Shown: positions 2,865 to 40,334, numbered from the stretch's first letter. The stretch: 40,334 nt of DNA from an uncultured Gammaproteobacteria bacterium (GCA_964508395.1 CAZDTO010000001.1:1-40334); one strand, 5' to 3'. Notes: generated from the letters alone by a model not told the origin. A program made the numbers and translations.

Positions 2865-2916
2865 GTATAAATAATAACTGGATTCTTTGGTTAATAATAA
2901 TTAGTTTTTTAGTGAT

Positions 2917-3099
2917 ATGGTTAGTATAAAAAAGGGTCAAAGATTAAGGAAAAGATTAGAGAAATTTTTTTGGGAAGAAAAACTTGGCCCAGTAAACCAA
3001 ATAGCTAGTCCAAACGAGAAACTTTATAAGTATGGCCAAGGTCAACTTAATAGTTTAATTGATAAGTTAATAAATATTTATGAAGCTCAAGATATATAA
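2917..3099 (+). CDS. hypothetical protein
   Basis: Track ORF, followed by a weak hairpin plus T-run (aagcaagaatgctttttt). Confidence 0.4.
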   Translation: MVSIKKGQRLRKRLEKFFWEEKLGPVNQIASPNEKLYKYGQGQLNSLIDKLINIYEAQDI

Positions 3100-3309
3100 G
3101 AAGACAGGTACATAAGCAAGAATGCTTTTTTAACCGATCCTGTAAAAACCAGACGGGATTAAAGCGAAGGGCAGAATAAGGAGAAGTTGAGGGGATTGTA
3201 AGTGTTCATGTATTTGACTCTAGCAGTCCCTTCAACAAAGCAATTGAGGGGTAAGAAAAGTAAAAGGAAGTGTGGGTATTGTCCATGACCACCTGCCCCT
3301 CAGCAAATT

Positions 3310-3618
3310 ATGAAAAAACATTTTTTTGAAGCAGGAAAGCAAAAATTAGTTAAGAGTAAAGTGTCTGGATATGTTTGTCTTTGTAGGGTTTGTGGCAAGA
3401 CAGCATTCGAACACACGAACTGGAAAGAGGGTTTTATGAGGACTGCAAGAGCTATACAAAGATCGGAAGAAAACTATCCAATCAAAAAACTACCAGTCAG
3501 GAGAGGCGTACAACTTAGCTCAACGCTGTCTGGTCAAAGAGAATTAATAAGAGAAATGAGAAACAAAATCAACGAAATTATTAAATATATAAATGAAGAT
3601 TATGAAAAAACCAAGTAA
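3310..3618 (+). CDS. hypothetical protein with CxCxxC motif
   Basis: Track ORF. Contains CLCRVCGK. Confidence 0.45.
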   Translation: MKKHFFEAGKQKLVKSKVSGYVCLCRVCGKTAFEHTNWKEGFMRTARAIQRSEENYPIKKLPVRRGVQLSSTLSGQRELIREMRNKINEIIKYINEDYEKTK

Positions 3619-3949
3619 AAAAACATTAAAATTAAGAGCCGATAAATTATTTAGAGATAAGGTTCGTTCTCTAGGTAGGTGTGAATTAAGAGGGCTAGAT
3701 CACATAGAGTGTTCTGGTGATCTGCAAACTATGCACATAATAGGCCGTAGTAATCACAGGTTGCGTTGGGAGCTACTCAATTCGATTTGCGGGTGTTCTG
3801 GTCATCACTTTTGGTATACTAACAATCCGTTCTACTTCTTTGAGTTAGTTAAAAGGGAATTTCCCGGCCGATATGAATTTGTTACCCAGTATAAGAATAC
3901 AGTTTGGGACAAGGATATAGAATCAGTTATTGCTAGATTACAAGTATGA
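3593..3949 (+). CDS. NinG/Rap-like or HNH-like nuclease candidate
   Basis: Pattern LFRDKVRSLGRCEL...LQTMHIIGRSNHRLRWELLNSICGCSGHH resembles the Cys/His layout of lambda NinG-type proteins. Recognised from memory only. Confidence 0.35.
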   Translation: MKIMKKPSKKTLKLRADKLFRDKVRSLGRCELRGLDHIECSGDLQTMHIIGRSNHRLRWELLNSICGCSGHHFWYTNNPFYFFELVKREFPGRYEFVTQYKNTVWDKDIESVIARLQV

Positions 3950-4777: not shown

Positions 4778-5145
4778 AAACAACCGATAAGTATATTTTA
4801 AAAGGCAAGAAGGTCGTTCCAGAATATGACTTGATGAAATGGGCTAGATGGTTTGAAACAGCAGGCAAGACGAGAATTGTTAGACAAACGCAGATAATTA
4901 AAGGATTAAAGTTCGGCAAAAAAGCATTAGGAATACCCATAAAAATATCAACTGTATTCTTAGGACTAGATCATTCTTTTGCCTTTGGTAGAAATCATAT
5001 TCCTATTTTATTTGAAACTATGATATTTGGTGGAAAGCATGACCAGTATCAAGAAAGATACGCAACGTGGGAAGAAGCGGAAAAAGGACATAAAAAGGCA
5101 TTAAAACTTGTTAAGGAGTCCTTTAGTGAGGAGAAAGTTTTATGA
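4774..5145 (+). CDS. hypothetical protein
   Basis: Track ORF. Block LFETMIFGG...RYATWEEAEKGH looks like a recurrent phage family of unknown function. Confidence 0.55.
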   Translation: MKTTDKYILKGKKVVPEYDLMKWARWFETAGKTRIVRQTQIIKGLKFGKKALGIPIKISTVFLGLDHSFAFGRNHIPILFETMIFGGKHDQYQERYATWEEAEKGHKKALKLVKESFSEEKVL

Positions 5146-5318
5146 AAAAATATTTTTTTACAATAAAAGCTCACGAAGCACATAAAAACTCTAAGTATGA
5201 AGATTCTATTGGTAAAGAAATCTTTACGTGGCAAGCTATGGTTACACCAAAAGAATTAAAAGAGTTTTTAAAATATGCAACTAACGAATTATTGTCTGTT
5301 GAGAAAGAGGTTTTATGA
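5142..5318 (+). CDS. hypothetical small protein (58 aa)
   Basis: Hand-translated MKKYFFTIKAHEAHKNSKYEDSIGKEIFTWQAMVTPKELKEFLKYATNELLSVEKEVL. ATGA overlaps at both ends and the same junction motif as its neighbours. Confidence 0.5.
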   Translation: MKKYFFTIKAHEAHKNSKYEDSIGKEIFTWQAMVTPKELKEFLKYATNELLSVEKEVL

Positions 5319-5509: not shown

Positions 5510-5973
5510 AAACTAATCCATCCCCTATATCGGTATCTGGTATAGAGAAACTACACAATATTTTTATTAAGAGTGGGGAAATATATTGGAGACAGGATAT
5601 TCAAGCAAAAATAGTTTCTCTTTTCCAATCCGAGCTCTCAAAAGCTAAAAAAGAGGGGGAGAAAGAAGTCTGGAAAAATAACTGTTACAAACATCATTCA
5701 AAAAGATTGGCATTGAGAAAAAAGTATTATCAAAAGTCTAAGCATAAATTTATTGGAGTAGTAACAACTGATAAAAGTATGTGGTGTGAAACACACGATA
5801 AATTTGAGAAGCTTAAAGAACAGGTTACTAATTTAACTGACACTCCTGTAATGTGTAAATGCGGAGATAAAAGAAAAGACCACTATAATAATTGGGGAGA
5901 ATATACAGGTTGCGGTAATAAGCTAAACTGTGGGTGCAGTAAATTTATTTTATCTAAATTAGAGGGGGAGTAA
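5506..5973 (+). CDS. hypothetical Cys-rich protein
   Basis: Track ORF. C-terminal CKCGDKRKDHYNNWGEYTGCGNKLNCGC. Confidence 0.5.
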   Translation: MKTNPSPISVSGIEKLHNIFIKSGEIYWRQDIQAKIVSLFQSELSKAKKEGEKEVWKNNCYKHHSKRLALRKKYYQKSKHKFIGVVTTDKSMWCETHDKFEKLKEQVTNLTDTPVMCKCGDKRKDHYNNWGEYTGCGNKLNCGCSKFILSKLEGE

Positions 5974-5983
5974 AGAATAGAGA

Positions 5984-6205
5984 ATGAAAAGCGAAAATGT
6001 AAAAGAAGAAAAAGTGTGGGAAACCCAGGGTTATCTTATTAGAGAGGCTTTAGTAAGAGAAATTATAGATGCTGAAAGGTGGCAAACAGTTGTATCTTGT
6101 TGGCAAGCCCTTCTTAAAGTTAAAATTATGATAAAAGAAGCACAAGAAGAAGATAAAATACTAACCCAATCTCAAATGGCTAATTCAGATGAAAGTAAAG
6201 GATAG
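5984..6205 (+). CDS. hypothetical protein
   Basis: Track ORF. Its start lies in a repeated junction gtaaagaatagagaatgaaaag. Confidence 0.45.
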   Translation: MKSENVKEEKVWETQGYLIREALVREIIDAERWQTVVSCWQALLKVKIMIKEAQEEDKILTQSQMANSDESKG

Positions 6206-6218
6206 AGAATGAAAGGGG

Positions 6219-6416
6219 GTGTTTAAAATTTCAACTTTACAATACGTCCAGCCAACAGACGAGCAAAAGGCAGTAATGCAGACTTTTAGAGATAAGTATG
6301 AGGTTCTTTTCAATGAATTAAAAGAACTTCCGAGCAGTCGTGGTATGTCGCTTGCATTAACAAAACTAGAAGAAAGTGCAATGTGGCTTAATAAAGCATT
6401 AACTAAAAACGATTAG
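6219..6416 (+). CDS. hypothetical protein (start uncertain)
   Basis: Track ORF with GTG start. An ATG at 6209 is separated from this frame by a G5 run. Confidence 0.4.
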   Translation: MFKISTLQYVQPTDEQKAVMQTFRDKYEVLFNELKELPSSRGMSLALTKLEESAMWLNKALTKND

Positions 6417-6491
6417 TCTTTTGCAACCATTTTACCGATGTCGGGAGAATGGTTATAGTAGATTAATTTTAGGATAGGAGGAATAGAAAAT

Positions 6492-6680
6492 ATGGCACAA
6501 ATAATTGAATTGATAATCACAAGTGATAATGAAGGCAATATAGACCTTTACTCAAAAAGTGGAAGTTGGATTGCACATAGCGATTTAAAAACAGAAGGTT
6601 GGTTTATGCCCAATGATTTATTAGAAGGAAAATTGAGAGATATTTTTAAGCCAAAAAAACCTAGAATAAATAATTTATGA
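6492..6680 (+). CDS. hypothetical protein (cassette A)
   Basis: Track ORF. Perfect SD aggagg, with conserved 5' and 3' flanks shared with the next ORF. Confidence 0.5.
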   Translation: MAQIIELIITSDNEGNIDLYSKSGSWIAHSDLKTEGWFMPNDLLEGKLRDIFKPKKPRINNL

Positions 6681-6708
6681 ATATTCCATTTAAGGAGGAA
6701 TAGAAAAT

Positions 6709-6996
6709 ATGACTACTAAAACCAAGATAAGAACAATACAAAAAGAGAATTGGAAAAAGATAAATTTTTTAATGGATTTAAGGCGAAAACAATTTGAAGA
6801 TTTATACCAAGAGAACTGGTGGAATTATTTAATTGAAGATAAATTATATAAACATTTATGCCAGAAACTCGTTGAGATTAAATTAATGGGTAGACCTATG
6901 TTTTTAATTGACAAAAAATTGTCAGAGGAGGATATTAAGAACTTAGCAAGTGGATTTATAAACGTAGCGAATTTTATTAAAAATATAGATTTATGA
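6709..6996 (+). CDS. hypothetical protein (cassette B)
   Basis: Track ORF. Same 19-nt 5' flank and 17-nt 3' flank as cassette A. Confidence 0.5.
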   Translation: MTTKTKIRTIQKENWKKINFLMDLRRKQFEDLYQENWWNYLIEDKLYKHLCQKLVEIKLMGRPMFLIDKKLSEEDIKNLASGFINVANFIKNIDL

Positions 6997-7112
6997 ATAT
7001 TCCATCTCCTACAGTAAAGGTAAAAGGGAAAAGGAAAAAGGTTCTAATCAAAGAATTAGTTATTGAGAGATTAAAATCAATACCCGATAATGTTAGAGTT
7101 TCTATTGGCTAA
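6993..7112 (+). CDS. hypothetical small basic protein (39 aa)
   Basis: Hand-translated MNIPSPTVKVKGKRKKVLIKELVIERLKSIPDNVRVSIG. Its first 13 nt are duplicated at 6677-6689. Confidence 0.3.
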   Translation: MNIPSPTVKVKGKRKKVLIKELVIERLKSIPDNVRVSIG

Positions 7113-7115
7113 TCT

Positions 7116-7271
7116 ATGAAATCTTTTACTACATCTATTAAGAAAAAGAAAGAGAAACTATTTATAGATAATTACAAAGACAAAGATTACAGATACGTTG
7201 TTATTACTTATCGAGATAAGATGGGAAATTTAAGCAGCAGCTCTGAATTTATAAAAAGATATGAAAACTAA
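7116..7271 (+). CDS. hypothetical small protein (51 aa)
   Basis: Hand-translated MKSFTTSIKKKKEKLFIDNYKDKDYRYVVITYRDKMGNLSSSSEFIKRYEN. Confidence 0.3.
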   Translation: MKSFTTSIKKKKEKLFIDNYKDKDYRYVVITYRDKMGNLSSSSEFIKRYEN

Positions 7272-7452
7272 CTCATCTATCGAGAAAAAGAAAGAAATGG
7301 TTTATAAGAGAGTTAAAGCCTTAATGCCTCACTGTAAAGATTGTGGGGAAGAATTATTTGGGAATAATAGTGTAGCCTTACCTTATAGATGCAGTTGCGG
7401 AACTTGGGAGCAGAATTGGTCAACGGGAGAATTTTATATTAAAATTAAATGA
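7261..7452 (+). CDS. hypothetical zinc-ribbon protein
   Basis: Track ORF. CKDCGEE...CSCG. Confidence 0.45.
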   Translation: MKTNSSIEKKKEMVYKRVKALMPHCKDCGEELFGNNSVALPYRCSCGTWEQNWSTGEFYIKIK

Positions 7453-8042
7453 CTAACTCATCTCATAAAGACAATAGGAAACATTTTCATACACCGTGGG
7501 GAAGTCCACCTTATTTATGCAAAGATAGTTTATGTGCCAAAATGCAACTTAAGACCCCAGAAGTAAAGGAGAAACCAATTTCGGATCGCCCCGAAAATGG
7601 TTGTGAGTGCCATTGTCATAAACCAACTCATGCAAAAACGATGTATTGTAATTGTAAGTGCTCTTGCTCTACCCCTAGAGAGGAATCTACTAATTACCAG
7701 TCAAGTAGTAGTAAACTAGGAGCAAACGTGGAAGGGTGGGAAAAGGAGTTTGAGGAACTTCCTGAATGGGAAACATGGCGTGATACTCCACCAGAAAAAG
7801 AAGATTATCAATATGATTTAGGATTCTTACAAGCACAAATTAAAATCTTTATTTCTAATTTGCTCCGTTCAGAGAGAAAAAGGTTGGTGGAGGAAATTAA
7901 AAAAAAGGTAAAAGAAGAATTAGAATTAACTAGGGTTAAGAATCTCAAAGGCTTAAAGGTTATAGATCAATTGAATGATATATTTGATTTCGCTTTTGAT
8001 GATGTTTTGGAGTACTTGGAGGAGGTATTTAAGGGAGATTGA
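7449..8042 (+). CDS. hypothetical Cys/His-rich protein with acidic coiled-coil C-terminus
   Basis: Track ORF. CECHCHKPTHAKTMYCNCKCSCS cluster. Confidence 0.5.
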   Translation: MTNSSHKDNRKHFHTPWGSPPYLCKDSLCAKMQLKTPEVKEKPISDRPENGCECHCHKPTHAKTMYCNCKCSCSTPREESTNYQSSSSKLGANVEGWEKEFEELPEWETWRDTPPEKEDYQYDLGFLQAQIKIFISNLLRSERKRLVEEIKKKVKEELELTRVKNLKGLKVIDQLNDIFDFAFDDVLEYLEEVFKGD

Positions 8043-8146
8043 GTTGGGGAGAATGTTGACTATTGACTCTATTATCGTAGTTCAAGAGTGCTCTTGGGCT
8101 AAATTGAATAGAGGGTTCTTCTCTCCAACTGAGTCTCTTTAAGAAT

Positions 8147-8347
8147 ATGAAGAAGATAATGTATAAACATCATATAGAGTTTTTGAAAAGAATAAATAAA
8201 GAATTTACAACTGAAGATGCACAAAAAATACTAGGTAAATCCAGCATGGCATTGGGAGGTTTTTTAGGTGCATTAGTAAAAAATAAATATATAGAACCAA
8301 TTTATAGAATAACTCGTTCGAATGTTGTTTATAAAAAACTTGTATGA
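8147..8347 (+). CDS. small winged-helix-like DNA-binding protein (regulator candidate)
   Basis: Track ORF. FTTEDAQKILGKSSMALGGFLGALVKNKYIEP resembles a wHTH. It sits between two copies of TATTGAC...TTATCGTAGTT. Confidence 0.4.
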   Translation: MKKIMYKHHIEFLKRINKEFTTEDAQKILGKSSMALGGFLGALVKNKYIEPIYRITRSNVVYKKLV

Positions 8348-8437
8348 ATGTAGTCAATCTCTTGATTGAGAAGAAGGAGAAATGAACCTATTTTGGCGGG
8401 GATACTAGTGCCCGCCAGCAATACGTTCGGGAGAAAG

Positions 8438-8463
8438 AGGAGGCTATTAACAGCTTCCTTTTT
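8438..8463 (+). terminator. intrinsic terminator candidate after the wHTH gene
   Basis: aggaggc (8438-8444) pairs with gcttcct (8453-8459, one G-U), followed by a T5 run. Confidence 0.4.
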
Positions 8464-8468
8464 CGTTA

Positions 8469-8497
8469 TTGACAAGTAATTTCGGATGTGTTATCGT
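8469..8497 (+). promoter_or_regulatory. sigma70-type promoter with extended -10 (late operon promoter candidate)
   Basis: TTGACA 8469-8474, 17-nt spacer, TGt 8489-8491, TATCGT 8492-8497. Confidence 0.5.
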
Positions 8498-8506
8498 AGT
8501 TGCATA

Positions 8507-8545
8507 CCCGAACGTTTCATTAAATTGAAAGGTGCGGGTTTTTTT
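8507..8545 (+). terminator. terminator/attenuator hairpin immediately downstream of the promoter
   Basis: cccgaac (8507-8513) pairs with gtgcggg (8532-8538, one mismatch), then a T7 run 8539-8545 abutting ATG 8546. Confidence 0.45.
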
Positions 8546-8785
8546 ATGGTTCAGAAGAATAGTCACAAGGACAGCCTGACAATTTTCAGAAACAATATGA
8601 TGCTGGAAATTGCCATTACGGAAGTTAATCTGAGAATGGCGGAAAGAGATAAACTTCTCGCAGTTGATATAAACCCTAATCTTTCAGCACACATTGCGGG
8701 CTTAACAGAAAAAATAAAATTAATACAAAAGAATATTGCTATGGTTGATAAACTTTTAGAAGAGGAGGAGAAAAAATTAAACTGA
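8546..8785 (+). CDS. hypothetical coiled-coil protein, first gene of the late operon
   Basis: Track ORF 8486..8785. The upstream part overlaps the promoter and leader hairpin, so ATG 8546 (MVQKNSHK) is preferred. Confidence 0.45.
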   Translation: MVQKNSHKDSLTIFRNNMMLEIAITEVNLRMAERDKLLAVDINPNLSAHIAGLTEKIKLIQKNIAMVDKLLEEEEKKLN

Positions 8786-8786
8786 T

Positions 8787-9143
8787 ATGGCTTTAATTCC
8801 GTCTCCAGGATTCATGTTACTTGAAAAAGTTCCCGTTCCTCACACCAGTAAGCTGGCTCGTTCCAACGAGGATACCGCAGACTCCAACTACGGCAAGGTT
8901 TTAGATTGGGGTCTGCCTTTACTGCAAGAGGGCGGAGTTGTCCTACAGATACCCAGATTTTCCATAGAGACTAATGAGGAAGGGTTGGGAGGTAAGGAAA
9001 GAAAGCTCAAGAAGGGGGACATAGTAGTTTTCGAGAAGAGAACGGAACGTAAAATGAATGATGATTATAGCTCGGGGGCAGATATAATTCAGGTTCGATT
9101 TGATTCACTGCTCGCTTTATTTATAGAGGAGGTAAGAGAATAA
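8787..9143 (+). CDS. groES: GroES-like co-chaperonin (Cpn10 family, divergent)
   Basis: LIPSPGFMLLEKV (cf. GroES i-P-l-g-d-r-v-l-v), NYGKVLDWG (cf. G-x-V-v-A-v-G), LKKGDIVVFEK (cf. v-k-v-G-D-x-V-l-f) and a terminal IIQVRFDSLLALF. Lies immediately upstream of the GroEL-like gene and overlaps it by 1 nt. Confidence 0.6.
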   Translation: MALIPSPGFMLLEKVPVPHTSKLARSNEDTADSNYGKVLDWGLPLLQEGGVVLQIPRFSIETNEEGLGGKERKLKKGDIVVFEKRTERKMNDDYSSGADIIQVRFDSLLALFIEEVRE

Positions 9144-10792
9144 TGGCAATAATTCCAAAAAGGGTAGAGTTTTCTACGGAGGCTCGAAACTATATCTTAA
9201 AAGGAGCTGGAATTATGGCTCGTGCAGTTGGAACTACCTTGGGGCCTAAAGGCAGGAATGTCTTACTATCCTCAAAATATGGTGGGATTATTGAGGTGCA
9301 TGACGGGGTGACTGTAAGTAACGAAACCAAGCTGGACGATCCTCGTGAAGACGCAGGAGCTACAGCTATACGAGACGCAGCCCGAAAGACTAATGATGCC
9401 TCCGGGGATGGCACTACCACCGCCACAGTTTTAGCTTACGAGATTTTACGGGAGGGGAACGCTTACATAATTGCAGGTAAGAACCCCATGTTGATGCAGA
9501 AAGGTATTGATACTGCGGCTAAGCAGGCGGTCGAACTCCTAAAAGAAATGGCAGAACCTATTAAAGAATCTTTAGAGAAGATGATCCAGGTGGCTACAGT
9601 CTCGGCAGCTGATGAGGAGATAGGAAAAGTTATAGCTGAGGCTCTTAAAAAAGTAGGCAAATACGGAGTGGTGACGGTAGACAAGGGTAACGAATTGGGC
9701 TATCATACCGAGTTTAAGGACGGTATGGAGTGGGATAAAGGCTGGATACATCCTGGTTTTGTTTTAAGGGTGCTTGACGGTAAGCCTAACGTGAGGTTAG
9801 AAGCTAAGGTTGAGGAACCCTTTGTTTTGGTGACCGATCACACGATCACTTCGCGATTAGAGATACTACCCTTTTTGGAGAGGTTTGTGGAGGCGGGACA
9901 CAAAAACTTGCTTATTATCTGTGACGGAGTAGAGAGAGAAGCAATGGTTATTTTAGGAGCGCAGTTTGAACGGGGAGTAATTAATGTCTTGCCTGTTCCC
10001 GCCCCCTCATTTGGTGAGCATAAAAGAGATGGTCTGGAAGACATTGCTATTTTAACGGGCGGAGTGTTTGTCTCTAAAGAGATGGGAATGAACATCAAGG
10101 ACATTAAGCTAGACGTTGAGCCGCAGATATTAGGTAGGGCTGATTCGGTTGTTGCCACCCAAACTTCAACAGTCCTTATAGGAGGCAGGGGTGATCCGGA
10201 GAAAGTCAAGGCCAGGGCAAAACAAATCGAAGAACAATTAAAGGATGCGGATCATGAGTTGAAGAAAGAGAAGTACATCGAAAGGCTTGCCAAGCTGACT
10301 TCGGGAGTAGCGGTAGTTAAGGTCGGGACATCTGGGGATGCGGAAAACAGAGAAAAGACCGAGAGGGTTAAGGATGCCATAGGTGCTACCAAGGCTGCGG
10401 TGGAGGAAGGGATTGTACCTGGAGGCGGAATAGCCTTGCTAGAAATAGCTCAAAAGATAAACACCAATTTGGGTTCTGAGGAGGAAAATCTAGGGGCAGA
10501 AATTTTAAAGAAAGCTCTATTAAAACCAATTAAACTATTAGTAGAAAATGCCGGGGGCAGTCCTGATGTAGTTATTAACGAGATTCTTAAAAAGGAAGCG
10601 GGAACAGGCTATAATGTGGTTACAGGAAAGTATGTTGACATGAAGAAGGCGGGAATTGTGGATCCACTCAAAGTTACTATCTCCGCAGTACAAAATGCGG
10701 CAAGTGTGGGGGGGATGTTATTGACTGTAGAGGCAACCATAACTGATATGCCTGATCCCGAAAGAGAGAAAAAAGAACAGCAAGGAGAATAA
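9143..10792 (+). CDS. groEL: GroEL-like chaperonin (Cpn60 family)
   Basis: 549 aa. Hallmark blocks TLGPKGRNVLL, DGVTV, GDGTTTATVLA, AVVKVG, EEGIVPGGG, GIVDPLKV. Lacks the C-terminal GGM repeat tail. Confidence 0.9.
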   Translation: MAIIPKRVEFSTEARNYILKGAGIMARAVGTTLGPKGRNVLLSSKYGGIIEVHDGVTVSNETKLDDPREDAGATAIRDAARKTNDASGDGTTTATVLAYEILREGNAYIIAGKNPMLMQKGIDTAAKQAVELLKEMAEPIKESLEKMIQVATVSAADEEIGKVIAEALKKVGKYGVVTVDKGNELGYHTEFKDGMEWDKGWIHPGFVLRVLDGKPNVRLEAKVEEPFVLVTDHTITSRLEILPFLERFVEAGHKNLLIICDGVEREAMVILGAQFERGVINVLPVPAPSFGEHKRDGLEDIAILTGGVFVSKEMGMNIKDIKLDVEPQILGRADSVVATQTSTVLIGGRGDPEKVKARAKQIEEQLKDADHELKKEKYIERLAKLTSGVAVVKVGTSGDAENREKTERVKDAIGATKAAVEEGIVPGGGIALLEIAQKINTNLGSEEENLGAEILKKALLKPIKLLVENAGGSPDVVINEILKKEAGTGYNVVTGKYVDMKKAGIVDPLKVTISAVQNAASVGGMLLTVEATITDMPDPEREKKEQQGE

Positions 10793-11046
10793 TGAATACA
10801 GAAACTGGCGAACAATTCATAAAGAGAATTATTAAATGTTCTCTATCCGCTCTCTTTGCAATAGGGGTTACAAGCCCCCAAAACATTGATAAATTAGTTA
10901 ATCATTTTACAGAGGAGTTAATGAAAAACTATCCTGTTGTGCCTAGCGAGCCAACAAATGAGCCTATTCCTGAAAATGCAAGACCGCAGGATGCCCCACA
11001 AGCCCCCCAAAAAGAAGAAGTTGACATAGTAGTAGGGGAGAAATAG
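10792..11046 (+). CDS. hypothetical protein
   Basis: Track ORF, TAATG overlap with the GroEL gene. Confidence 0.45.
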   Translation: MNTETGEQFIKRIIKCSLSALFAIGVTSPQNIDKLVNHFTEELMKNYPVVPSEPTNEPIPENARPQDAPQAPQKEEVDIVVGEK

Positions 11047-11060
11047 AAAAAGAAATAAAT

Positions 11061-11468
11061 ATGGAGTACGTCTTAATTATTATTGCCGGGCTTTTGATTG
11101 CGCCTTACTTAATGTACGGTTGGCTTTTTGGACTCACGCTTATAAAAAGATTATACGACAAAGAATGGAAAGAAACCAAAGGGTTGATTGGAGCGTATGA
11201 AAAGCTAACCCCTGAGCAGAGAATGGACTTAGAGATACATAGGGATCAGCCGACTACCCCAACCCAACAGCAGCCTAAGAGCGATAAGACTACTCAATGG
11301 CTTGGTTCTCCCACTCCGCAGGCAGAGTTAAAATCGCAAAATGAGCAGGCTTTTCGTGAGGGGTTGGTTCATAAAACGCCTGTAACGGGATGGGAAAGTA
11401 ACGAGGAAGCGAACCGAGCGCCTGATACAACGATAACAAATCCATTAGCTTTAGCACCAAAACCATGA
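11061..11468 (+). CDS. hypothetical membrane-anchored protein
   Basis: Track ORF. N-terminal helix VLIIIAGLLIAPYLMYGWLFGLTLI. Confidence 0.5.
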   Translation: MEYVLIIIAGLLIAPYLMYGWLFGLTLIKRLYDKEWKETKGLIGAYEKLTPEQRMDLEIHRDQPTTPTQQQPKSDKTTQWLGSPTPQAELKSQNEQAFREGLVHKTPVTGWESNEEANRAPDTTITNPLALAPKP

Positions 11469-11478
11469 AAGGAGGTAT

Positions 11479-11667
11479 ATGACGATTTACATTTGGGAGA
11501 ATGAAATAAGCAAAATTGTCCTGGCGGTAATTGCAGGTTCAGTAGCTGATGCAATAAAACTTGCAGAGCAAGACGGTATCAAGGTAGAAGGTGAACCCCA
11601 AAGGGTGATATCTCTTGTTGAGCCAACACCCGCAATAGTTGTTTATAGCGGGGAAAAAAATGAATGA
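11479..11667 (+). CDS. hypothetical protein
   Basis: Track ORF, with SD aaggagg upstream. Confidence 0.45.
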   Translation: MTIYIWENEISKIVLAVIAGSVADAIKLAEQDGIKVEGEPQRVISLVEPTPAIVVYSGEKNE

Positions 11668-12005
11668 AATCTTGCTCGCACGTCCTCGGTTTTCTAAGTG
11701 ATATGCGAACTGTCTTAACAGACAGGGATTTTATTGAACGAAAATGCAGAGTTTGCGGAGAAGAAGAAATATTAAAAAGGGCGGGAAAAATCCAAACAGG
11801 CTATAGTGTGCCTGCAGAGCAGTTTAGGGACTTTGAGAGAAGGGAGTTTGCAAAAGAGCAGTTACAGCCCCAGCCGCAGAAGTATGATACGGGACCCGTT
11901 AACGAGTTATTTGAAGACGCTTATGGTGATCCTGCAGTGACAGCCAAGTCCAGGATGGGAGCTAAAACTGATGAGGCTTTTGTAAAGCCAGAAGGAGAGA
12001 AATGA
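11664..12005 (+). CDS. hypothetical protein
   Basis: Track ORF, ATGA overlaps. Confidence 0.45.
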   Translation: MKSCSHVLGFLSDMRTVLTDRDFIERKCRVCGEEEILKRAGKIQTGYSVPAEQFRDFERREFAKEQLQPQPQKYDTGPVNELFEDAYGDPAVTAKSRMGAKTDEAFVKPEGEK

Positions 12006-12442
12006 CTGAACAAAAAACCGATATTAAACAACTTCAAGTAATCTTTGGGGAGGATTTAGACTTATTGTTATTTTATCTTGCTTGGATTAAAAATGGACTT
12101 AATGCCACTAGAGCTTATAAAGAATTGCACCCAAACGTAACAAATGGAAGTGCGGAGGTTTTGGGTTCAAGGGCGTTAGGAAAAGTTAGTAAAGAGTTAA
12201 TTATGCAAGCCTATGGGTTGGATCAACAAATATACTTCGACCAATTAAAAGAAGGAATTGATGCTACTAAGTGGAATGATTTTACAGGCGAGAGGGAAGC
12301 AGACCATAAGACAAGACGGGAATACCACAAGACGCTTGGAAAATTATTAGGAATAGAAAGAGATGATGAAACCCCACCAATTCAAGTGAATGTAGGAGTA
12401 TTTAACAATGCAACTATGGCAAAAAGATATTCAATAAAATGA
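12002..12442 (+). CDS. terS: terminase small subunit
   Basis: LFYLAWIKNGLNATRAYKELHPNVTNGSAEVLGSRALGK matches the Terminase_2-type HTH pattern (N-A-T-x-A-y...a...as.ll). Lies directly upstream of TerL. Confidence 0.7.
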   Translation: MTEQKTDIKQLQVIFGEDLDLLLFYLAWIKNGLNATRAYKELHPNVTNGSAEVLGSRALGKVSKELIMQAYGLDQQIYFDQLKEGIDATKWNDFTGEREADHKTRREYHKTLGKLLGIERDDETPPIQVNVGVFNNATMAKRYSIK

Positions 12443-13359
12443 GAGCTTTTGGAGAAAACATCAATTATCAATCGTTTATCGAGGATAACTTCCTTATCAA
12501 AAACAAGGATGGAATAGTTGTACCATTCCTTTTTGACATCTTCCAGGAGGGACAGATCAGATCAGTACAGGACTACTACATGGTTGACCTATACCGACAC
12601 TATGGCGATGAGCTTGAGGGCGTGAGGGATATTGTCCTCAAGGGACGCAAAGAGGGGTTTAGCGCAATGATACTGGGTATGTTTGCTACCGACTTCTTAA
12701 TGTCGGAACACCCGATCGGCTGCGTATCTATTGCGGATACAAAAGAGGAAACTCAGAGACTATTGAGCAGGGCTAAGTTTTTTATAGAGTCGGCAGCAAT
12801 AAAAGAAAATAGTAAGCTAACGGACATTTGCGATATAGTCAGTAAAAACCAGTTGCGCAATAAGTGGAACGGGGCGGAGTTTTGGATTGGTACAGCAGGG
12901 AGTAAGGTTGCATTGCGTACCGAAACAGTTCAGGACTTGCATTTTTCAGAAGCAGCCTACTTTGCCGATACGGATATCATAACTGCCACAGAGACGATTG
13001 AAGGGGCGTTGCAGATGGTTCCGCAAGGCAAGGGGAAGGTGTTTATCGAGTCAACTGCTAACGGATATGGCAACTATTATCAGGACTTGTGGGATAAGGC
13101 CAGTTTAGGCGAGAGTACCTTTAGACCAGTATTCTATGGAGCTGACCAGTTCTACTCAAAAGAATGGCTGGCTATCAAAGAGATAGACTTTACGACCAGA
13201 GAGATGTTCTGGCAGGAATATCCTAATAGCCCGGGGCAGGCTTTTATTTCCAGCGGCAGTAAGTTTTTTGATACAGAAGCCATACTGTGGTTGCAAAAAG
13301 AGGTTGTTAGAAAGCCTCTGATTGAGGGCAATCTGAACATATACGGAGAGATAGTTTAA
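12439..13359 (+). CDS. terL: terminase large subunit, N-terminal ATPase half only
   Basis: VLKGRKEGFS (Walker A-like), VQDLHFSEAAYF (Walker B/catalytic Glu region), IESTANG (coupling motif), FWQEYPNSPGQAF. Stops at TAA 13357-13359 with no nuclease domain. Confidence 0.8.
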   Translation: MRAFGENINYQSFIEDNFLIKNKDGIVVPFLFDIFQEGQIRSVQDYYMVDLYRHYGDELEGVRDIVLKGRKEGFSAMILGMFATDFLMSEHPIGCVSIADTKEETQRLLSRAKFFIESAAIKENSKLTDICDIVSKNQLRNKWNGAEFWIGTAGSKVALRTETVQDLHFSEAAYFADTDIITATETIEGALQMVPQGKGKVFIESTANGYGNYYQDLWDKASLGESTFRPVFYGADQFYSKEWLAIKEIDFTTREMFWQEYPNSPGQAFISSGSKFFDTEAILWLQKEVVRKPLIEGNLNIYGEIV

Positions 13360-13643
13360 TGAAGTATTTAATAGTAGCTAAATTAAAGAAACAAAAACAG
13401 CAAGGGGGAAAATACTTTTTTCTATCTGATAAAGATTACGAGAGGTATATTGATGAAATGTCAGAATTTAACCCGAAACTTACAGGTAGTTTAGTTAAAG
13501 GCAGTTCAGCGGTGTTAAGTGAAGATGGAGTATTCCTGACCCCTGCTCAACAAGGAATCCCACTCTTATTTTATTGTGGTTTGCCTGTTTTTAGGAAGAG
13601 GTATAAAAAGTTAGTTAAAAGTATTTATGGGGAGATTGTATGA
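13359..13643 (+). CDS. hypothetical protein whose C-terminal tail copies the TerL-N tail
   Basis: Track ORF. Ends ...FRKRYKKLVKSIYGEIV, compared with the TerL-N end ...VRKPLIEGNLNIYGEIV. Confidence 0.5.
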   Translation: MKYLIVAKLKKQKQQGGKYFFLSDKDYERYIDEMSEFNPKLTGSLVKGSSAVLSEDGVFLTPAQQGIPLLFYCGLPVFRKRYKKLVKSIYGEIV

Positions 13644-13891
13644 AAAGATGGTTTGATGATTGGAAGATAGAAACAGAAAATGAACGAAAAAACTATGTTC
13701 GCTTAATACTGCGGTTACCTCATACAAAGTCAAAGCAGAAATTTTTGATGTTAACAGTTAAAAGGAATGGTGGATTACATTGGTTATTTAGCCACTTTGA
13801 ATTAGCTTTAATGAATTTATCAGAGTCTGTAGAAATAACTTTACCAGAAGACACAAAGGTTGTCAAAACAATATATAAAGAATTAAAATGA
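13640..13891 (+). CDS. hypothetical protein
   Basis: Track ORF, ATGA overlaps at both ends. Confidence 0.45.
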   Translation: MKRWFDDWKIETENERKNYVRLILRLPHTKSKQKFLMLTVKRNGGLHWLFSHFELALMNLSESVEITLPEDTKVVKTIYKELK

Positions 13892-14670
13892 ATCCTGCCG
13901 AAGTAATCAGTGAAGTTCTACAATCAATAGCTGAGAAAGCTCAAGTAGGCGTTAATTTATTGGAACTTGAAAAGAGAGCAGAGACTACTATACAAATAAG
14001 AGGAGCCGTTTCGGCAAACAAAAACTATCAACCTCAATGGGCGAAGACACCCTTCCCTTCTGTGGTGTGTCTGGGAGTCAACGATCAAGTAGGACACAAC
14101 ATACCCAGGGATTATGTCTTACAAGATGGTGATCTCTTAAAGATAGACTGCGGTATCACAATCAATGGTCAGGCAGGAGACGCAGGACTCACCATTCCTA
14201 TAGGCAAGATTAGCGATAGGGATGAGAGACTGCTAAGGTATACCAAGAGAGCTTTGTACCGAGGTATCCAAGCTATTCAAGTAGGCGGCAAGGTTAGCGA
14301 GGTAGGCAAAGTTATTGAACGCTATATAATGCAGATGGGATTGGCTGTTGTCAGACAGATGAACGGTCATGGTATAGGAGCGCAGATGCACATGGAGCCG
14401 GCCATCCCGCACTTTATCGTACCGCAAAAGAGAGTCGGGAAGAAGTACGAGTATACCGAGGTTGACTTGGGTACTTTCCGCGAGGGACAGATAGTATGCA
14501 TTGAACCTCATGTTACCTATCATAGCGATGTGGTCAAGGAGGACGATTGGGGTTTGAAAACTAGAGATGGGCGCAAGTCAGCAATGTTTGAACATATGGT
14601 AGAGATTAGTTCATCGGGAGTAAGAATTTTAACAACGCATATTGCAGAGGAGGTGAATTATGGAGAATAA
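13888..14670 (+). CDS. map: methionine aminopeptidase, type I-like
   Basis: Pita-bread fold motifs with all expected metal ligands visible: VGHNIP, KIDCG (Asp), GDAGLT (Asp), GHGIG (His), CIEP (Glu), FEHMV (Glu). Confidence 0.8.
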   Translation: MNPAEVISEVLQSIAEKAQVGVNLLELEKRAETTIQIRGAVSANKNYQPQWAKTPFPSVVCLGVNDQVGHNIPRDYVLQDGDLLKIDCGITINGQAGDAGLTIPIGKISDRDERLLRYTKRALYRGIQAIQVGGKVSEVGKVIERYIMQMGLAVVRQMNGHGIGAQMHMEPAIPHFIVPQKRVGKKYEYTEVDLGTFREGQIVCIEPHVTYHSDVVKEDDWGLKTRDGRKSAMFEHMVEISSSGVRILTTHIAEEVNYGE

Positions 14671-14920
14671 AAATATATTTGTCGCCGGTATCCCCTGGGC
14701 TTTTGATGACCTAAAGTTAAGTGAACTCTTTGCGAAACACGGAGCGGTAGTCTCGGCTAAAGTTATAACTGACAGAGATACGGGGAGATCAAAAGGCTAT
14801 GGTTTTGTTGAGATGTCAACATCAGAGGAAGCCCAAAGCGCAATCAAAAACCTTGACGGTACTGATCTTAATGGGCGAAAATTGGTAGTCAATGCCGCAA
14901 AACCAAGAAGGGAGGTATAA
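14660..14920 (+). CDS. RRM-type RNA-binding protein
   Basis: 86 aa. RNP2-like IFVAGI and a perfect RNP1 KGYGFVEM (14792-14815). Overall it resembles small bacterial RRM (Rbp) proteins. Confidence 0.8.
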   Translation: MENKNIFVAGIPWAFDDLKLSELFAKHGAVVSAKVITDRDTGRSKGYGFVEMSTSEEAQSAIKNLDGTDLNGRKLVVNAAKPRREV

Positions 14921-15141
14921 TGAGCAGTTGTGTCGTTTGTGAAAAACCTTTGGCGAAGTATCATTGCTTGCCCGATGTATATTACTGTGTCAGTCCAAGA
15001 TGTACGAACTTGGGGTTGTTAACAGTGATTGTTTTAACGCCTCAAGCGACTAAAACGGAGGTAAAAGATGATAAAGTTGTACCGCAATCTGGAAGCGTTG
15101 GAGCCGATAGTCCTGTCGGGGGATCCGGGGGAAGGAATTAG
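14920..15141 (+). CDS. hypothetical zinc-ribbon protein
   Basis: Track ORF. CVVCEKP...CVSPRC. The last 74 nt overlap TerL-C in another frame, so the C-terminus is uncertain. Confidence 0.35.
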   Translation: MSSCVVCEKPLAKYHCLPDVYYCVSPRCTNLGLLTVIVLTPQATKTEVKDDKVVPQSGSVGADSPVGGSGGRN

Positions 15142-15748
15142 TTTTGCCGCAGGAGTTTGTATAAGCAAGAAGTACCATGATGTACCGCTTGTTTATCATG
15201 CAAGGATTGAATCTCCCGCTTTTGGGAACGAGCTCTACAAAATGGGGCTGTTTGTTAAGAAAAAAACAGGGGACTTTCCTTTATTGGCTGTAGAACGAAA
15301 CATCGGTGCAGCTACAATAGCCAAACTCATTGAGCTGGAGTACCCGTACGGCAAGCTATACAGGCAGAAAACCTTTGACAGAATACTGCGTCAGGAAGAA
15401 GACAGGATAGGATGGGTTACAACATCTACCAACAGAAGAAAGATGCTGGATGATCTGGCTTTGGCTATCCGTAGAAAAGAGTTGAAAGTCTACGATAAAG
15501 ATATTGTAGATGAGATGCTTACCTTTATTATTGCGGAACGCACAGGAGAACCAAGACCTGAGCGTAACCACTTCTCTGATCTGATTATGGCATTGGCAAT
15601 AGCAAATCAAATAGCGGGAGAAAACAGAATAGCGGCGAAGTGGGCGCCGACAATAGAGAAGAAGGAGAAAGATAACTATTTGCCTGAGAAAGCGGAAGGT
15701 TTTATTACCGAAAAATGGCAAGAAAAAAGAGATTGGCGATCAGGTTAG
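15068..15748 (+). CDS. terL: terminase large subunit, C-terminal RNase H-like nuclease half only
   Basis: IVLSGDPGEG (first catalytic Asp strand), AVERNIGAATI, GWVTTSTNRRKMLDDL, HFSDLIMALAIANQ. Own SD GGAGG 15057-15061 and an in-frame TAA 15062-15064 just upstream. Confidence 0.75.
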   Translation: MIKLYRNLEALEPIVLSGDPGEGISFAAGVCISKKYHDVPLVYHARIESPAFGNELYKMGLFVKKKTGDFPLLAVERNIGAATIAKLIELEYPYGKLYRQKTFDRILRQEEDRIGWVTTSTNRRKMLDDLALAIRRKELKVYDKDIVDEMLTFIIAERTGEPRPERNHFSDLIMALAIANQIAGENRIAAKWAPTIEKKEKDNYLPEKAEGFITEKWQEKRDWRSG

Positions 15749-15751
15749 GTA

Positions 15752-15780
15752 TTGACAAACGAGAAAATTAAGATAATAAT
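15752..15780 (+). promoter_or_regulatory. sigma70-type promoter candidate upstream of the portal gene
   Basis: TTGACA 15752-15757, ~17-nt spacer, A/T-rich -10 (gataataat). Confidence 0.35.
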
Positions 15781-15825
15781 ATTAGAGCCTATGATCTTTG
15801 TAGCAGGTATTTACGAGCGTAATTT

Positions 15826-17859
15826 ATGGCACTGCCAACTGTGGCGGAGGATACAAAAGAAGGCGCTGGCGAAATACAACAATGGTCTACTATTGATACC
15901 TCTGATGCAGACCTCATAAAAATAATCAACAAAAGGATTCAGAACGCAACCAAAGACTTTGAGGAACTCCGCACCGAAGGTTTAAGAAATGAACGCTACT
16001 GGTCTAAGGATCACTTACAGGGTATTGATCTTCGCTGGCATAACTCCCGTATCGTACAAAATAGAATTTACCTGAATGTGGAGACAATGGTTCCTATTAT
16101 TACCTCAAAGCCCGCCGAGCCTGTCATCAGTATCGTCAACGATGAAGAAGAAGAAACGCAAAAAAGCAGAGACTTTATATCATCTTTGCAAAAAGTCTTA
16201 TTAGATAAATACTACGATGAGGATTACCCCCAACAGGAACTTTTTGAGATGATTGCCCGCCACCTTTTACTTTTTAAGATCGGTATTCCTAAGATAGTCT
16301 GGTATGACGATATTGATGATTTTGTCGTTGAGTTTGTCCATCCCCACAAAATGATGGTAGGGGCGGACGGATATTACAGCAGTGATGTTTGGACCGCGCA
16401 ATATCTTGAAAAGTCGGTTAAGGAATTGGTTGATGAATTTCCAGAAAAGAAAGATGAATTTTTGTTAAAGTTATTTCCTAACGCGGGAGGAGGCATTGAG
16501 CAATTTGGAGACACTCCTGTTGGCTTCTGGGAATATATGCCTGAAGACGGCAGGTATATAGTCTGGAAAATGCGGGATGTTATTTTGCAGAAAAAAATTA
16601 ATCCATATATTAAATGGACTGATGACAAGAAATTTGACAAGGAAAACAACCATTTCGATTACTCAAAAAAGCCTACTATGTTTCTTAACTCCCAGACTTT
16701 AGGCAGGCATATCTGGGATGACACCTCAGTTGTCAGTCAGGCTATTCCTTTGCAGGATGGCATCAATTTAATGCAAAGGATTATTACCGATACGTCAAGA
16801 GATCAGGGTATTCTCGTGGGAGCAATGGAGTTGATCGATAAAGACGAACTCTATAAGTACACGGGAGGGTACAGCGAAAAACTGGCGGTAACAGGAAGCG
16901 ATCCGACAAAGGCTTTGCATCGAGTAGACCCCAAGAAGTTAGAGGCTTTTATACAGGATAATCTTTTGCACCTAGAGAATGCTTTGGATAATGTGATGGG
17001 TGTTCATTCAACAACGCGGGGAGAAAAGAGCAGCCAGCCGACATTGGGACAGGATCAACTTTCAAAGGAAGGGGATTACGGAAGAATTGACGGAATTGTC
17101 AGAGGAATAGAGAGAGTAGCTTCAGAGATATATAGCTGGGAAATCCAGATGATGGCAGTCAAGTACAAAGAGAAACATTTTCAGAGAATATTGGGGAATA
17201 AAAGGGGCAAAGAGTTTTACAAAGAGTTTAAGGAAGCTCTGAAGAAAGGTATTAAGATTATCATTAAGGCAGGATCAACTCTGCCTACAGACAAGCGCAC
17301 TCAAAGAGACGAGGCAATAGAACTTGCTAAGGCGGACAAGATTAGCAACCTCGACTTTTTTGAGCGCATGGATTACCCAAACCCCAAGAAGATGGCACAG
17401 AACTTGTGGCTAGAGCAGAACGCTCCCGAAGAACTGTACCCTGAATTAGTTGAGCAAATAACGGCAAAGAAGGAAAAGGATGCGGCGGCAATGCAGGAGC
17501 AAGTGGCAGCGCAACAAGCACCTGTACCTGTTACACAAGTACCAAATGGCGTAACAAATGGACAAGCAATGCCTAATGGTCAGATGGGACAAACTACGCC
17601 AATGGGACAACCCGCTTCCCAAACTCTAGCAGTCGAACCTACAGAACACACGCAAGCCCTCTTATCAGGACAGCAAGTAGAACCTTTTGAGGGTATTGAT
17701 TCCGCACAAGCAGAGGATCATCTTATAAGAGAGTTGCAGTTTGTGGGATCTGATGAATTTATGCAGTTATCAGAAGATATACAGGCTATCTATGCGCAAC
17801 ACGTTGTAGCGGAAAAGGAGATATTGGAACAGCAGACAGGACAACAATCTTATGCCTAA
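15826..17859 (+). CDS. portal protein
   Basis: 677 aa ORF immediately after the terminase. Size and position are typical. Q/P-rich low-complexity stretch near the C-terminus. No motif-level confirmation possible by eye. Confidence 0.6.
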   Translation: MALPTVAEDTKEGAGEIQQWSTIDTSDADLIKIINKRIQNATKDFEELRTEGLRNERYWSKDHLQGIDLRWHNSRIVQNRIYLNVETMVPIITSKPAEPVISIVNDEEEETQKSRDFISSLQKVLLDKYYDEDYPQQELFEMIARHLLLFKIGIPKIVWYDDIDDFVVEFVHPHKMMVGADGYYSSDVWTAQYLEKSVKELVDEFPEKKDEFLLKLFPNAGGGIEQFGDTPVGFWEYMPEDGRYIVWKMRDVILQKKINPYIKWTDDKKFDKENNHFDYSKKPTMFLNSQTLGRHIWDDTSVVSQAIPLQDGINLMQRIITDTSRDQGILVGAMELIDKDELYKYTGGYSEKLAVTGSDPTKALHRVDPKKLEAFIQDNLLHLENALDNVMGVHSTTRGEKSSQPTLGQDQLSKEGDYGRIDGIVRGIERVASEIYSWEIQMMAVKYKEKHFQRILGNKRGKEFYKEFKEALKKGIKIIIKAGSTLPTDKRTQRDEAIELAKADKISNLDFFERMDYPNPKKMAQNLWLEQNAPEELYPELVEQITAKKEKDAAAMQEQVAAQQAPVPVTQVPNGVTNGQAMPNGQMGQTTPMGQPASQTLAVEPTEHTQALLSGQQVEPFEGIDSAQAEDHLIRELQFVGSDEFMQLSEDIQAIYAQHVVAEKEILEQQTGQQSYA

Positions 17860-17980
17860 AAAACTTGAAGCCAAATTACTCAATGCGGCTAAGAGAAAAG
17901 GTTTTAGTAAGGAGAGGATTGGTGCGTATGTTTATGGAAGTCTCCATAAACTGGGTTGGAAACCCAACAAGGAAAAATGA
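17852..17980 (+). CDS. hypothetical small basic protein (42 aa)
   Basis: Hand-translated MPKKLEAKLLNAAKRKGFSKERIGAYVYGSLHKLGWKPNKEK. Overlaps the portal stop. Confidence 0.35.
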   Translation: MPKKLEAKLLNAAKRKGFSKERIGAYVYGSLHKLGWKPNKEK

Positions 17981-18189
17981 AAACCAAAGTAGATAGGGTA
18001 ATTATTCTTAAAAGAATAAGAGATGAAGGCAGGGTATCTTGGAAAATTATTGGTAGAATTTTCAAAATCAGTTATACCAGAGCAAGACAAATTTATTTTA
18101 ATAATGGACAAAATAACAATTATCCTAAAACGACTGGCTTAAAGGTACAGCCTCGAAAAATAGCAGACTATACAAACCTCTATTCTTAG
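17977..18189 (+). CDS. small HTH protein
   Basis: Track ORF 17956..18189, with the ATG at 17977 in an ATGA overlap. VSWKIIGRIFKISYTRARQIY is HTH-like. Confidence 0.45.
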   Translation: MKTKVDRVIILKRIRDEGRVSWKIIGRIFKISYTRARQIYFNNGQNNNYPKTTGLKVQPRKIADYTNLYS

Positions 18190-40267: not shown

Positions 40268-40334
40268 TACATTATGACATCGCAAAAGTTATATTGTACG
40301 ACATAATCACTTTCTCCTCCAAGGCTGCTTAAAC

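Follow-up and report, generated by a model that had tools for sequence, protein, structure and literature searches.

A large terminase probably made as two polypeptides, an ATPase and a nuclease subunit, in a contig from an uncultured gammaproteobacterium

INTRODUCTION

Tailed phages and herpesviruses have the large terminase (TerL) as their hallmark enzyme, which annotation, phylogenetics and mechanistic work all treat as a single chain; in one influential model, the electrostatic 'inchworm' of T4, the ATPase pulls the nuclease/translocation domain through a covalent hinge. What, then, are we to make of a locus where the ATPase and nuclease domains lie on separate open reading frames (ORFs)? 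Such a locus is found in a 40,334-nt stretch from an uncultured Gammaproteobacteria bacterium (GCA_964508395.1, CAZDTO010000001.1:1-40334), the whole of which we call 'the window'. A preliminary description, made from the sequence alone, held that a five-gene island of 1.7 kb splits the gene, leaving a choice between a two-polypeptide enzyme and some joining step. Our analysis indicates that the large terminase is very likely made as two separate polypeptides, an ATPase subunit (12439–13359) and a nuclease subunit (15068–15748); the island, on the other hand, is probably not what caused the split. Related loci and proteins are referred to by L- and P-numbers, respectively.

RESULTS

Two ORFs encode the two halves of one terminase

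The two genes, and the signals immediately upstream of the second, are set out below; ORF list and sequence agree with the positions first described.

12439–13359, plus strand: terL-N, stand-alone terminase ATPase subunit, 306 aa, stop codon TAA at 13357–13359
15057–15064, plus strand: Shine-Dalgarno (SD) sequence and stop ahead of terL-C; GGAGG at 15057–15061, in-frame TAA at 15062–15064, 3 nt before the ATG
15068–15748, plus strand: terL-C, stand-alone terminase nuclease subunit, 226 aa, RNase H-like fold

The motifs originally quoted for each half are present, and hold residues conserved across a 52-sequence alignment that includes contiguous TerLs. In terL-N, K68 and G73 of the Walker A-like motif (K-x-R-x-x-G-x-S), S170-E171 of Walker B and E204/T206/G209 of the coupling (C) motif are all invariant, with R70 and S75 nearly so (at least 90% of the 52 sequences) and fully invariant inside the split family; the deviant Walker A is presumably of the lambda gpA type. 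The catalytic acids of terL-C, D19, E76 and D171, are likewise invariant in the nuclease alignment.

Neither half matched a Pfam terminase family (Pfam-A, E ≤ 0.1) or any PDB sequence. At the level of PHROGs, terL-N matches only groups without assigned function, and terL-C matches PHROG 24361 'terminase' (3e-8). Identity therefore rests on homolog profiles, tblastn and predicted folds, so that the family check proposed at the outset failed as far as Pfam is concerned but succeeded by these other routes. By tblastn each half finds annotated TerL genes, at about 25% identity. Contiguous homologs of 493–536 aa, some carrying PF17289, were recovered via the N half, and a contiguous-homolog profile (516 positions) matches terL-N over its positions 18–318 (window 12406–13356, E 7e-49) and terL-C over positions 323–496 (window 15065–15745, E 2e-14). 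AlphaFold2 models made from 52-sequence alignments have a mean confidence (pLDDT) of 88 for terL-N and 85.5 for terL-C. The best Foldseek match of the former is the ATPase domain of T4 gp17 (E 5e-11), followed by the P74-26, Sf6, HK97 and D6E TerLs; the latter finds the T4 gp17 nuclease (E 1e-7; root-mean-square deviation 2.9 Å, with a range of 2.7–2.9 Å over T4 gp17 and G20c), as well as the G20c, RB49 and P74-26 nucleases. The C-terminal ~40 aa of terL-C are modelled with low confidence and end in DWR, a (K/D)WR tail that is conserved and is common to the contiguous relatives P0180, P0171 and P0184. With profile, fold and catalytic-residue evidence concordant, both halves are terminase domains, encoded by separate genes as the preliminary description had it. 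Six-frame searches with hidden Markov models found no second ATPase or nuclease half in the window.

The break falls in the interdomain linker

Single-chain relatives measure 526–542 aa, and the 306 + 226 aa of the two halves tile one such chain, in keeping with the original arithmetic. Aligned by BLASTP onto one 533-aa TerL, residues 11–299 of the N half cover 19–313 and residues 2–182 of the C half cover 329–502. Alignment of the concatenated halves with contiguous TerLs places the break in the interdomain linker, between the 'G-x-L...G' hairpin that ends the ATPase domain and the 'l-r-i-Y-x-e-P...D' motif of the first nuclease strand. P0180, a contiguous protein of 526 aa with ~40% identity to both halves, runs uninterrupted across this site.

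Several single-chain relatives show interruptions of another kind. P0171 and P0184 have a large in-frame, intein-like insertion at Walker B (LF|C...N|SE), with a second in the nuclease domain of P0184, and the single-chain TerL of L040 (1075–3738) has one of ~345 aa later in its ATPase domain; all are judged from a reading of the sequence. The sole reference-genome match above 30% identity, L009, comes from a metagenome-assembled genome assigned to Candidatus Paceibacterota (candidate phyla radiation): at 35% identity it is a contiguous TerL of 542 aa, carried on a contig of 7.3 kb, and gives a weak hint as to the host range of the wider group.

The two-gene state is shared by a diverse clade

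All 70 of the closest N homologs (42–100% identity) are of N-only size, 65 of them falling between 290 and 308 aa; 24 more distant ones (26–35% identity) run to 493–536 aa. The C homologs tell the same story, 70 out of 70 being no longer than 248 aa and most 207–248 aa. Searching more widely, an exhaustive HMMER run over 1.84 billion proteins supplied 150 nuclease representatives (P0169–P0316); among these best 150 representatives of 50%-identity clusters, 47 are 190–270 aa long and 63 are 450–700 aa, and 42 of the 47 begin with methionine. Both of the stand-alone representatives viewed in context (L100 and L101) are true two-gene terminases with small inserts. Stand-alone terminase nucleases may be common.

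Gene maps of 30-odd related contigs fall into two groups. (For viral contigs, a single-protein scan gave nothing; loci were recovered by an alignment-based scan.) In the first group the halves simply abut; this holds for nine distinct relatives (L004, L008, L023/24, L025, L026, L028, L029, L037 and L041), whose junctions are TAATG or ATGA overlaps, overlaps of 10–17 nt, or short spacers. Relative to the ATPase gene, the nuclease gene is offset by +2 in six of these and by +1 in the other three, and always has a start codon of its own, a mixture that fits translationally coupled cistrons rather than a conserved frameshift. In the second group the halves lie 0.4–3.4 kb apart (the window, L003, L005–7, L017–22, L097, L100 and L101), with differing gap content. 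The clade as a whole is diverse and uncultured, many of its members coming from groundwater.

Both halves are under strong purifying selection: between the window and L097, the closest relative that includes the junction, the nonsynonymous distance (dN) is 0.084 for terL-N and 0.13 for terL-C, whilst the synonymous distance (dS) is saturated. The order and orientation of terL-N, terL-C and the portal gene are kept in every phage-like locus examined. The genes that flank the pair in the window are:

12002–12442, plus strand: 146-aa ORF directly 5' of terL-N, overlapping it by 4 nt
15826–17859, plus strand: portal candidate, 677 aa, directly 3' of terL-C

By its position the 146-aa ORF is possibly the small terminase (TerS); it had no Pfam or PHROG match, and its homolog in L097 occupies the same position at 81% identity. 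The downstream gene is a candidate portal protein on grounds of position and homology. It had no Pfam match of its own, but is 57–81% identical to the gene that follows terL-C in L005, L006, L007 and L097, the L006 homolog giving a weak P22_portal match; the genes in portal position in L004 and L008 match SU10_portal.

A further broken terminase was seen in L066, a high-GC phage contig with ~30% identity. The break falls at the same profile position (319/320), the halves lie at 394–1962 and 2831–3679, and the 0.8 kb gap holds ORFs of 100 and 168 aa and, by Rfam, no intron; the split seems to have arisen independently.

The genes between the halves vary from relative to relative

In the window the 1,708 nt that separate the terL-N stop from the terL-C ATG are filled by five plus-strand ORFs:

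13359–13643, plus strand: orf94, orphan ORF inserted at the end of terL-N; TAATG overlap with the terL-N stop
13640–13891, plus strand: orf83, small lineage-specific ORF; ATGA overlap with orf94
13888–14670, plus strand: methionine aminopeptidase (MetAP); Peptidase_M24 (PF00557, 8e-34, residues 4–240)
14660–14920, plus strand: RRM_1 RNA-binding protein, 86 aa, Pfam 1.9e-21
14920–15141, plus strand: Zn-ribbon protein (orf73); C4-x2-C7 ... C22-x5-C28, then LGLL

The five overlap one another by 1 to 11 nt, and the last overlaps terL-C by 74 nt. They had been described as tightly coupled and uniformly SD-led; they do overlap or abut, and a GGAG-type SD precedes four of them, but none is visible ahead of the MetAP start, where there is an ATGA overlap instead. 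No plus-strand terminator-like site was seen between the halves. Pfam upholds the MetAP and RRM identities first proposed, the former by a match to a family of pita-bread fold. A motif scan of MetAP yields D87, D98, H161, E205 and E235 as candidate metal-ligand motifs, which by inspection may be equivalent to the ligands of Escherichia coli MetAP.

Two of these genes recur at the junction. MetAP lies between the halves in L003, L005, L006, L007, L018/19/20, L021, L022 and L097, and its partial start is seen in L098; it is absent from L017. The Zn-ribbon family of orf73, for which no Pfam family was matched, precedes the nuclease gene, usually with an overlap, at most loci of the island clade and has a dN/dS of about 0.2. 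By contrast, none of the related loci compared has a counterpart of orf94, orf83 or the RRM gene, and orf94 found no homolog but itself among 5.8 billion proteins. A dip in GC content (0.37 over 13001–14000, against 0.41–0.45 in the flanks) coincides with orf94 and orf83, consistent with a recent foreign origin for the two. Scans of the island for repeats, promoters and terminators gave nothing above chance, and no exact repeats resembling attachment sites or target-site duplications flank it.

Elsewhere the gap is otherwise occupied. In L098 (79% N identity) the place of orf94 is taken by an unrelated ORF of 103 aa; the content of other loci includes KGG-motif proteins, a zf_Tbcl protein, a minus-strand gene and small ORFs of no common kinship; and in more distant branches the insert is a 120-aa ORF (L100) or ORFs of 50 and 66 aa (L101). 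Variable inserts of this sort mark the junction as a recurrent insertion site. Judged by gene content, the five-gene island of the window is a lineage-specific elaboration of a seemingly older MetAP + Zn-ribbon core.

In the gap of L097 (89% N identity) the Zn-ribbon gene is followed by a free-standing HNH + NUMOD3 endonuclease gene (6012–6758; HNH 25.4 bits, cutoff 21.4), which overlaps the start of terL-C by 17 nt. Homing endonucleases are involved at the level of the family, unlike in the window's own insert: none of the five island ORFs matches an endonuclease family in Pfam, and orf73 has neither a Pfam match nor BLAST similarity to the L097 HNH protein. For the window itself, the earlier statement that the insert bears no intron, intein or homing-endonuclease signature holds by Rfam, by the ends of the halves and by Pfam.

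Which came first, the split or the island?

The preliminary description made the island the agent of the split. Against this, the two-gene state is clade-wide and nine relatives have it with no island at all, others holding unrelated inserts of 0.4–3.4 kb, so the island is most economically seen as accreted at a pre-existing junction. We infer that fission came first and that the junction later became a hot-spot for insertion and recombination, an order favoured by the clean coupling junctions of the abutting pairs and by the linker-position residues kept on some nuclease halves.

The halves and their neighbours are not all equally close to their counterparts in other genomes. Between the window and L005 these are 86% for the N half, 63% for the C half, 56% for MetAP and 58% for the portal gene; against L097 they are 89% (N), 81% (C) and 81% (portal). 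Such discordance between the halves suggests recombination at or near the junction. A footprint of the insertion of orf94 is probably preserved as well, in that its end repeats that of terL-N:

13336–13359, plus strand: 3' end of terL-N, AAC ATA TAC GGA GAG ATA GTT TAA (N-I-Y-G-E-I-V-stop)
13620–13643, plus strand: second copy of the tail, at the end of orf94, AGT ATT TAT GGG GAG ATT GTA TGA (S-I-Y-G-E-I-V-stop)

The last 18 nt of orf94 are identical at 17 of 18 positions to the 3' end of terL-N in L005 (TAT GGG GAG GTT GTA TGA), a match that takes in the ATGA overlap with the next gene. The orf94 tail would then be a relic of the original terL-N end. The Gly-Glu codons of the tail (GGA GAG / GGGGAG) sit where the SD of the next gene is expected, which may help to explain its conservation at the DNA level. 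That the duplicated IYGEIV tail is a selected docking peptide was considered and dropped, given the 17/18 nt match, the orphan status of orf94 and the SD-position codons.

On this reading, MetAP and the Zn-ribbon gene would have entered the junction early, and orf94, orf83 and the RRM gene recently; orf94 would have come in by recombination within the final seven codons of terL-N, which gained a new end from the incoming DNA whilst the old one stayed on orf94.

Two things weigh against fission first. An insertion of a mobile element that was later lost accounts for the fission in the same number of steps, and is thus equally parsimonious. The trees, moreover, have become less clear as sequences were added. 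A first neighbour-joining (NJ) tree of the nuclease domain brought the split forms together, L066 alone excepted, and placed the island clade within them, although the N-domain tree was already discordant for L028 and L041; in a larger NJ tree the contiguous P0180, P0171, P0184 and P0182 nest among the split forms. All are NJ trees without support values. 'One ancient fission', clean in the first nuclease tree, was accordingly given up once the representatives had been added: either cutting or re-fusion of the linker has happened on more than one occasion or the NJ trees cannot be trusted, and what we would claim from these sequences is at least one, and possibly several, fissions or re-fusions.

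The equal step count leaves some room for the most durable of the alternatives, which concerns origin rather than present-day function: that the linker was invaded by a free-standing homing endonuclease or other mobile cassette (model Ia, 'fractured genes'), the invader supplying the stop and start signals, and that the abutting pairs reflect later loss of the insert. We regard this as less likely than fission first, but as a serious possibility. The HNH + NUMOD3 gene that overlaps the terL-C start in L097 speaks for it, as do HNH genes near terL in L005, L100 and L101, the intein-like insertions of related contiguous TerLs, and the precedent of Aeh1 nrdA, split by mobE (for the model see PMC2677866, PMC3045599). 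Saying this, an endonuclease lies between the halves in one relative only and is not part of the common island core, no endonuclease remnant was detected in the window, the coupling junctions are clean, and some nuclease halves keep N-terminal extensions at the linker position.

Do the two halves work together?

Returning to our preferred reading, that of a two-polypeptide terminase, we can envisage the following. The genes from terL-N through terL-C would be co-transcribed and translationally coupled; the two proteins would assemble non-covalently on the portal; a ring of ATPase subunits would translocate DNA; and the nuclease subunit, recruited in trans, would cut concatemers. The (K/D)WR tail of terL-C may take part in recruitment and, by analogy with other TerLs, may contact the portal.

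Some points count against this. Co-transcription of the genes and association of the halves are both inferred, the latter from conservation, synteny and coupling. When T4 gp17 is split at its linker, ATPase and nuclease activities are kept but DNA translocation is lost (PMC3012670), and function in trans is therefore not assured by precedent. Finally, the halves are not always linked: the ATPase half of L099 has no nuclease partner within 10 kb.

The L099 locus is worth describing for itself. Its positions 9651–10903 hold a TerS-like gene (weak TerS PHROG matches) and an ATPase half 62% identical to that of the window, within an element of ~12 kb (roughly 5650–18130) that also encodes a Prim-Pol, a helix-turn-helix regulator and an integrase-like fragment, between cellular-looking flanks (LexA, NUDIX, UDP-glucose dehydrogenase). 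No nuclease half, portal or capsid homolog was found within 10 kb on either side. It may be the remnant of a prophage, or else a satellite-like element for which the ATPase half suffices.

The discordant relatedness of the halves, the ATPase-only element of L099 and the conserved Zn-ribbon gene point toward a stronger proposal, namely that the fission is not neutral and has given a modular two-subunit terminase whose parts are exchanged and hijacked separately. We hold this to be rather unlikely. On that proposal, the L099 element, integrated and satellite-like, would redirect the nuclease, portal and capsid of a helper phage to its own DNA, and the Zn-ribbon protein could serve as a new adaptor in place of the hinge that was lost; were it true, a covalent nuclease domain would be unnecessary for translocation here, contrary to the T4 result.

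The same discordance (86% against 63% between the window and L005) and the same L099 element might instead suggest that the halves have parted company altogether, the ATPase alone forming a phi29-like motor and the nuclease serving as an independent resolvase, as a maturation nuclease or in some other role. PMC7672431 describes a phi29-type motor ATPase that translocates with a vestigial nuclease domain. Yet in terL-C the D-E-D triad is complete and the fold is still that of a TerL nuclease; in the phage-like loci examined its gene always comes after terL-N and ahead of the portal gene, pointing the same way as both; and in the tree contiguous forms are interspersed with split ones, a hint that the two are functionally equivalent. 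On balance we find separate roles improbable.

Could the halves instead be joined after transcription or translation, by intron splicing, split-intein trans-splicing, frameshifting or bypassing, into a normal single chain? Group I introns, inteins and natural split inteins are all documented in terL (PMC12880540, PMC7344957, PMC2677866, PMC13014065); in the open-access literature we found only terL genes interrupted in these ways, by an intron, an intein or a split intein, and no conserved two-gene TerL. In the window, however, no Rfam family scored at the gathering threshold, and a permissive scan (E ≤ 5) of 12300–15900 gave three chance-level matches, none of them an intron, in a search that covers described RNA families. 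Known Int-N fragments are at least 16–25 aa long and Int-C fragments 33–122 aa (PMC13014065, PMC2677866), and because the end of terL-N and Met1 of terL-C both align to native TerL residues there is no room for either. The gap itself is taken up by five overlapping, coupled ORFs. A fusion by ribosomal frameshift is impossible over 1.7 kb, and we know of no ribosomal bypass on that scale. At the junctions of the abutting relatives no slippery heptamer was seen by eye, and there the +1 or +2 frame is combined with an ATG of the nuclease gene's own, at or near the N stop. Stop read-through or an alternative genetic code was also considered, and rejected since the downstream genes lie in other frames and coding is dense under table 11. 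With no joining mechanism visible, this half of the original choice is very improbable, and the two-polypeptide enzyme is the half that we favour.

Least probable of all, to the point where it may be set aside, is that the arrangement is artefactual, whether through chimeric assembly, through a frameshift in sequencing or because a defective element harbours a decaying pseudogene; for although the source is a metagenomic contig with no terminal repeat to confirm completeness, identical or near-identical half proteins occur on several independent contigs and the two-gene architecture in dozens of assemblies from different projects, a recurrence that argues against misassembly, dN is far below the saturated dS, and a strong SD and an in-frame stop precede terL-C.

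Other features of the window and its relatives

Upstream of the terminase genes, the window encodes a Cpn60/GroEL-type chaperonin (9143–10792, Pfam 1.2e-63); relatives L005, L007, L097 and L098 add to this a Cpn10 and an RNA polymerase alpha C-terminal-domain-like protein, with an HNH gene placed between those for the chaperonins. Close to the two ends of the contig, ~40 nt in, stands an exact 16-nt direct repeat, TCGCAAAAGTTATATT (40–55 and 40280–40295), where 0.06 such matches would arise by chance; the ends themselves do not overlap exactly, and the repeat may be a terminal or regulatory motif. In L100, just 3' of terL-C, positions 4941–5147 match Acb2_Tad1_hairpin, an anti-defence protein family.

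DISCUSSION

A clade that keeps the two halves of its terminase as two selected genes is a natural experiment on the requirement for a covalent hinge, and provides ready-made sequences with which to test whether the nuclease is needed in cis and how it is recruited. There is also a practical side. Pipelines that look for a TerL of ~500 aa, or that use TerL as a marker, will miss or mis-score such phages, Pfam having found neither half; and with about one third of the nearest nuclease-domain relatives in the 1.84-billion-protein library being of stand-alone size, the format may be under-recognised. The junction, for its part, emerges as a hot-spot at which host-like genes gather, those for MetAP and for RRM, KGG and zinc-finger proteins.

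How does this compare with what is known? The halves share with T4 gp17, P74-26/G20c, Sf6 gp2 and HK97 TerL the same two folds, the same catalytic residues and the same ATPase-nuclease-portal gene order, but in the window the two domains are on separate polypeptides. The phi29 gp16 motor demonstrates that DNA can be translocated by a terminase-type ATPase to which no active nuclease is covalently joined; phi29, however, is without any nuclease activity and packages unit-length, protein-primed DNA, whereas here an intact nuclease subunit is retained. Terminase coding parts separated by other genes are also found in herpesvirus UL15, whose two exons flank other genes and are spliced into one mRNA and one protein. 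The UL15 exon boundary is not known to lie at the domain linker, and there is no sign of splicing between the halves of the window.

Nearer to the present case are phages in which terL is itself interrupted. Jug phages, Certrevirus CB7 and Campylobacter phage IBB_35 illustrate how frequently terL is a target of mobile elements, as do the intein-like insertions among relatives of the clade; in those phages splicing restores a single chain, whereas here no ribozyme was found and the cistrons of abutting relatives overlap. The GOS and AceL TerL split inteins likewise have two terL ORFs in the original order and locus, sometimes with an intervening gene (PMC2677866, PMC13014065). There Int-N and Int-C ligate the halves, unlike the halves of the window, which have no extra residues at either end.

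The closest functional precedent, by analogy, would be Aeh1 NrdA. Its gene was split by mobE into two, and with no RNA or protein splicing the fragments form a non-covalent complex, reassembled through protein-protein contacts (PMC3045599, PMC2677866). In both systems an essential phage enzyme is encoded by two genes, and an HNH endonuclease lies in the gap of our relative L097; but whereas the Aeh1 insert is a single endonuclease, that of the window is cargo, and the split is here clade-wide and often insert-free. Assembly of Aeh1 NrdA depends, furthermore, on novel tails made by the insertion, whilst the island-clade halves have no tails beyond native linker residues. The present case would be a further essential phage enzyme with its genes in pieces, in this instance the terminase, with a cargo hot-spot at the junction.

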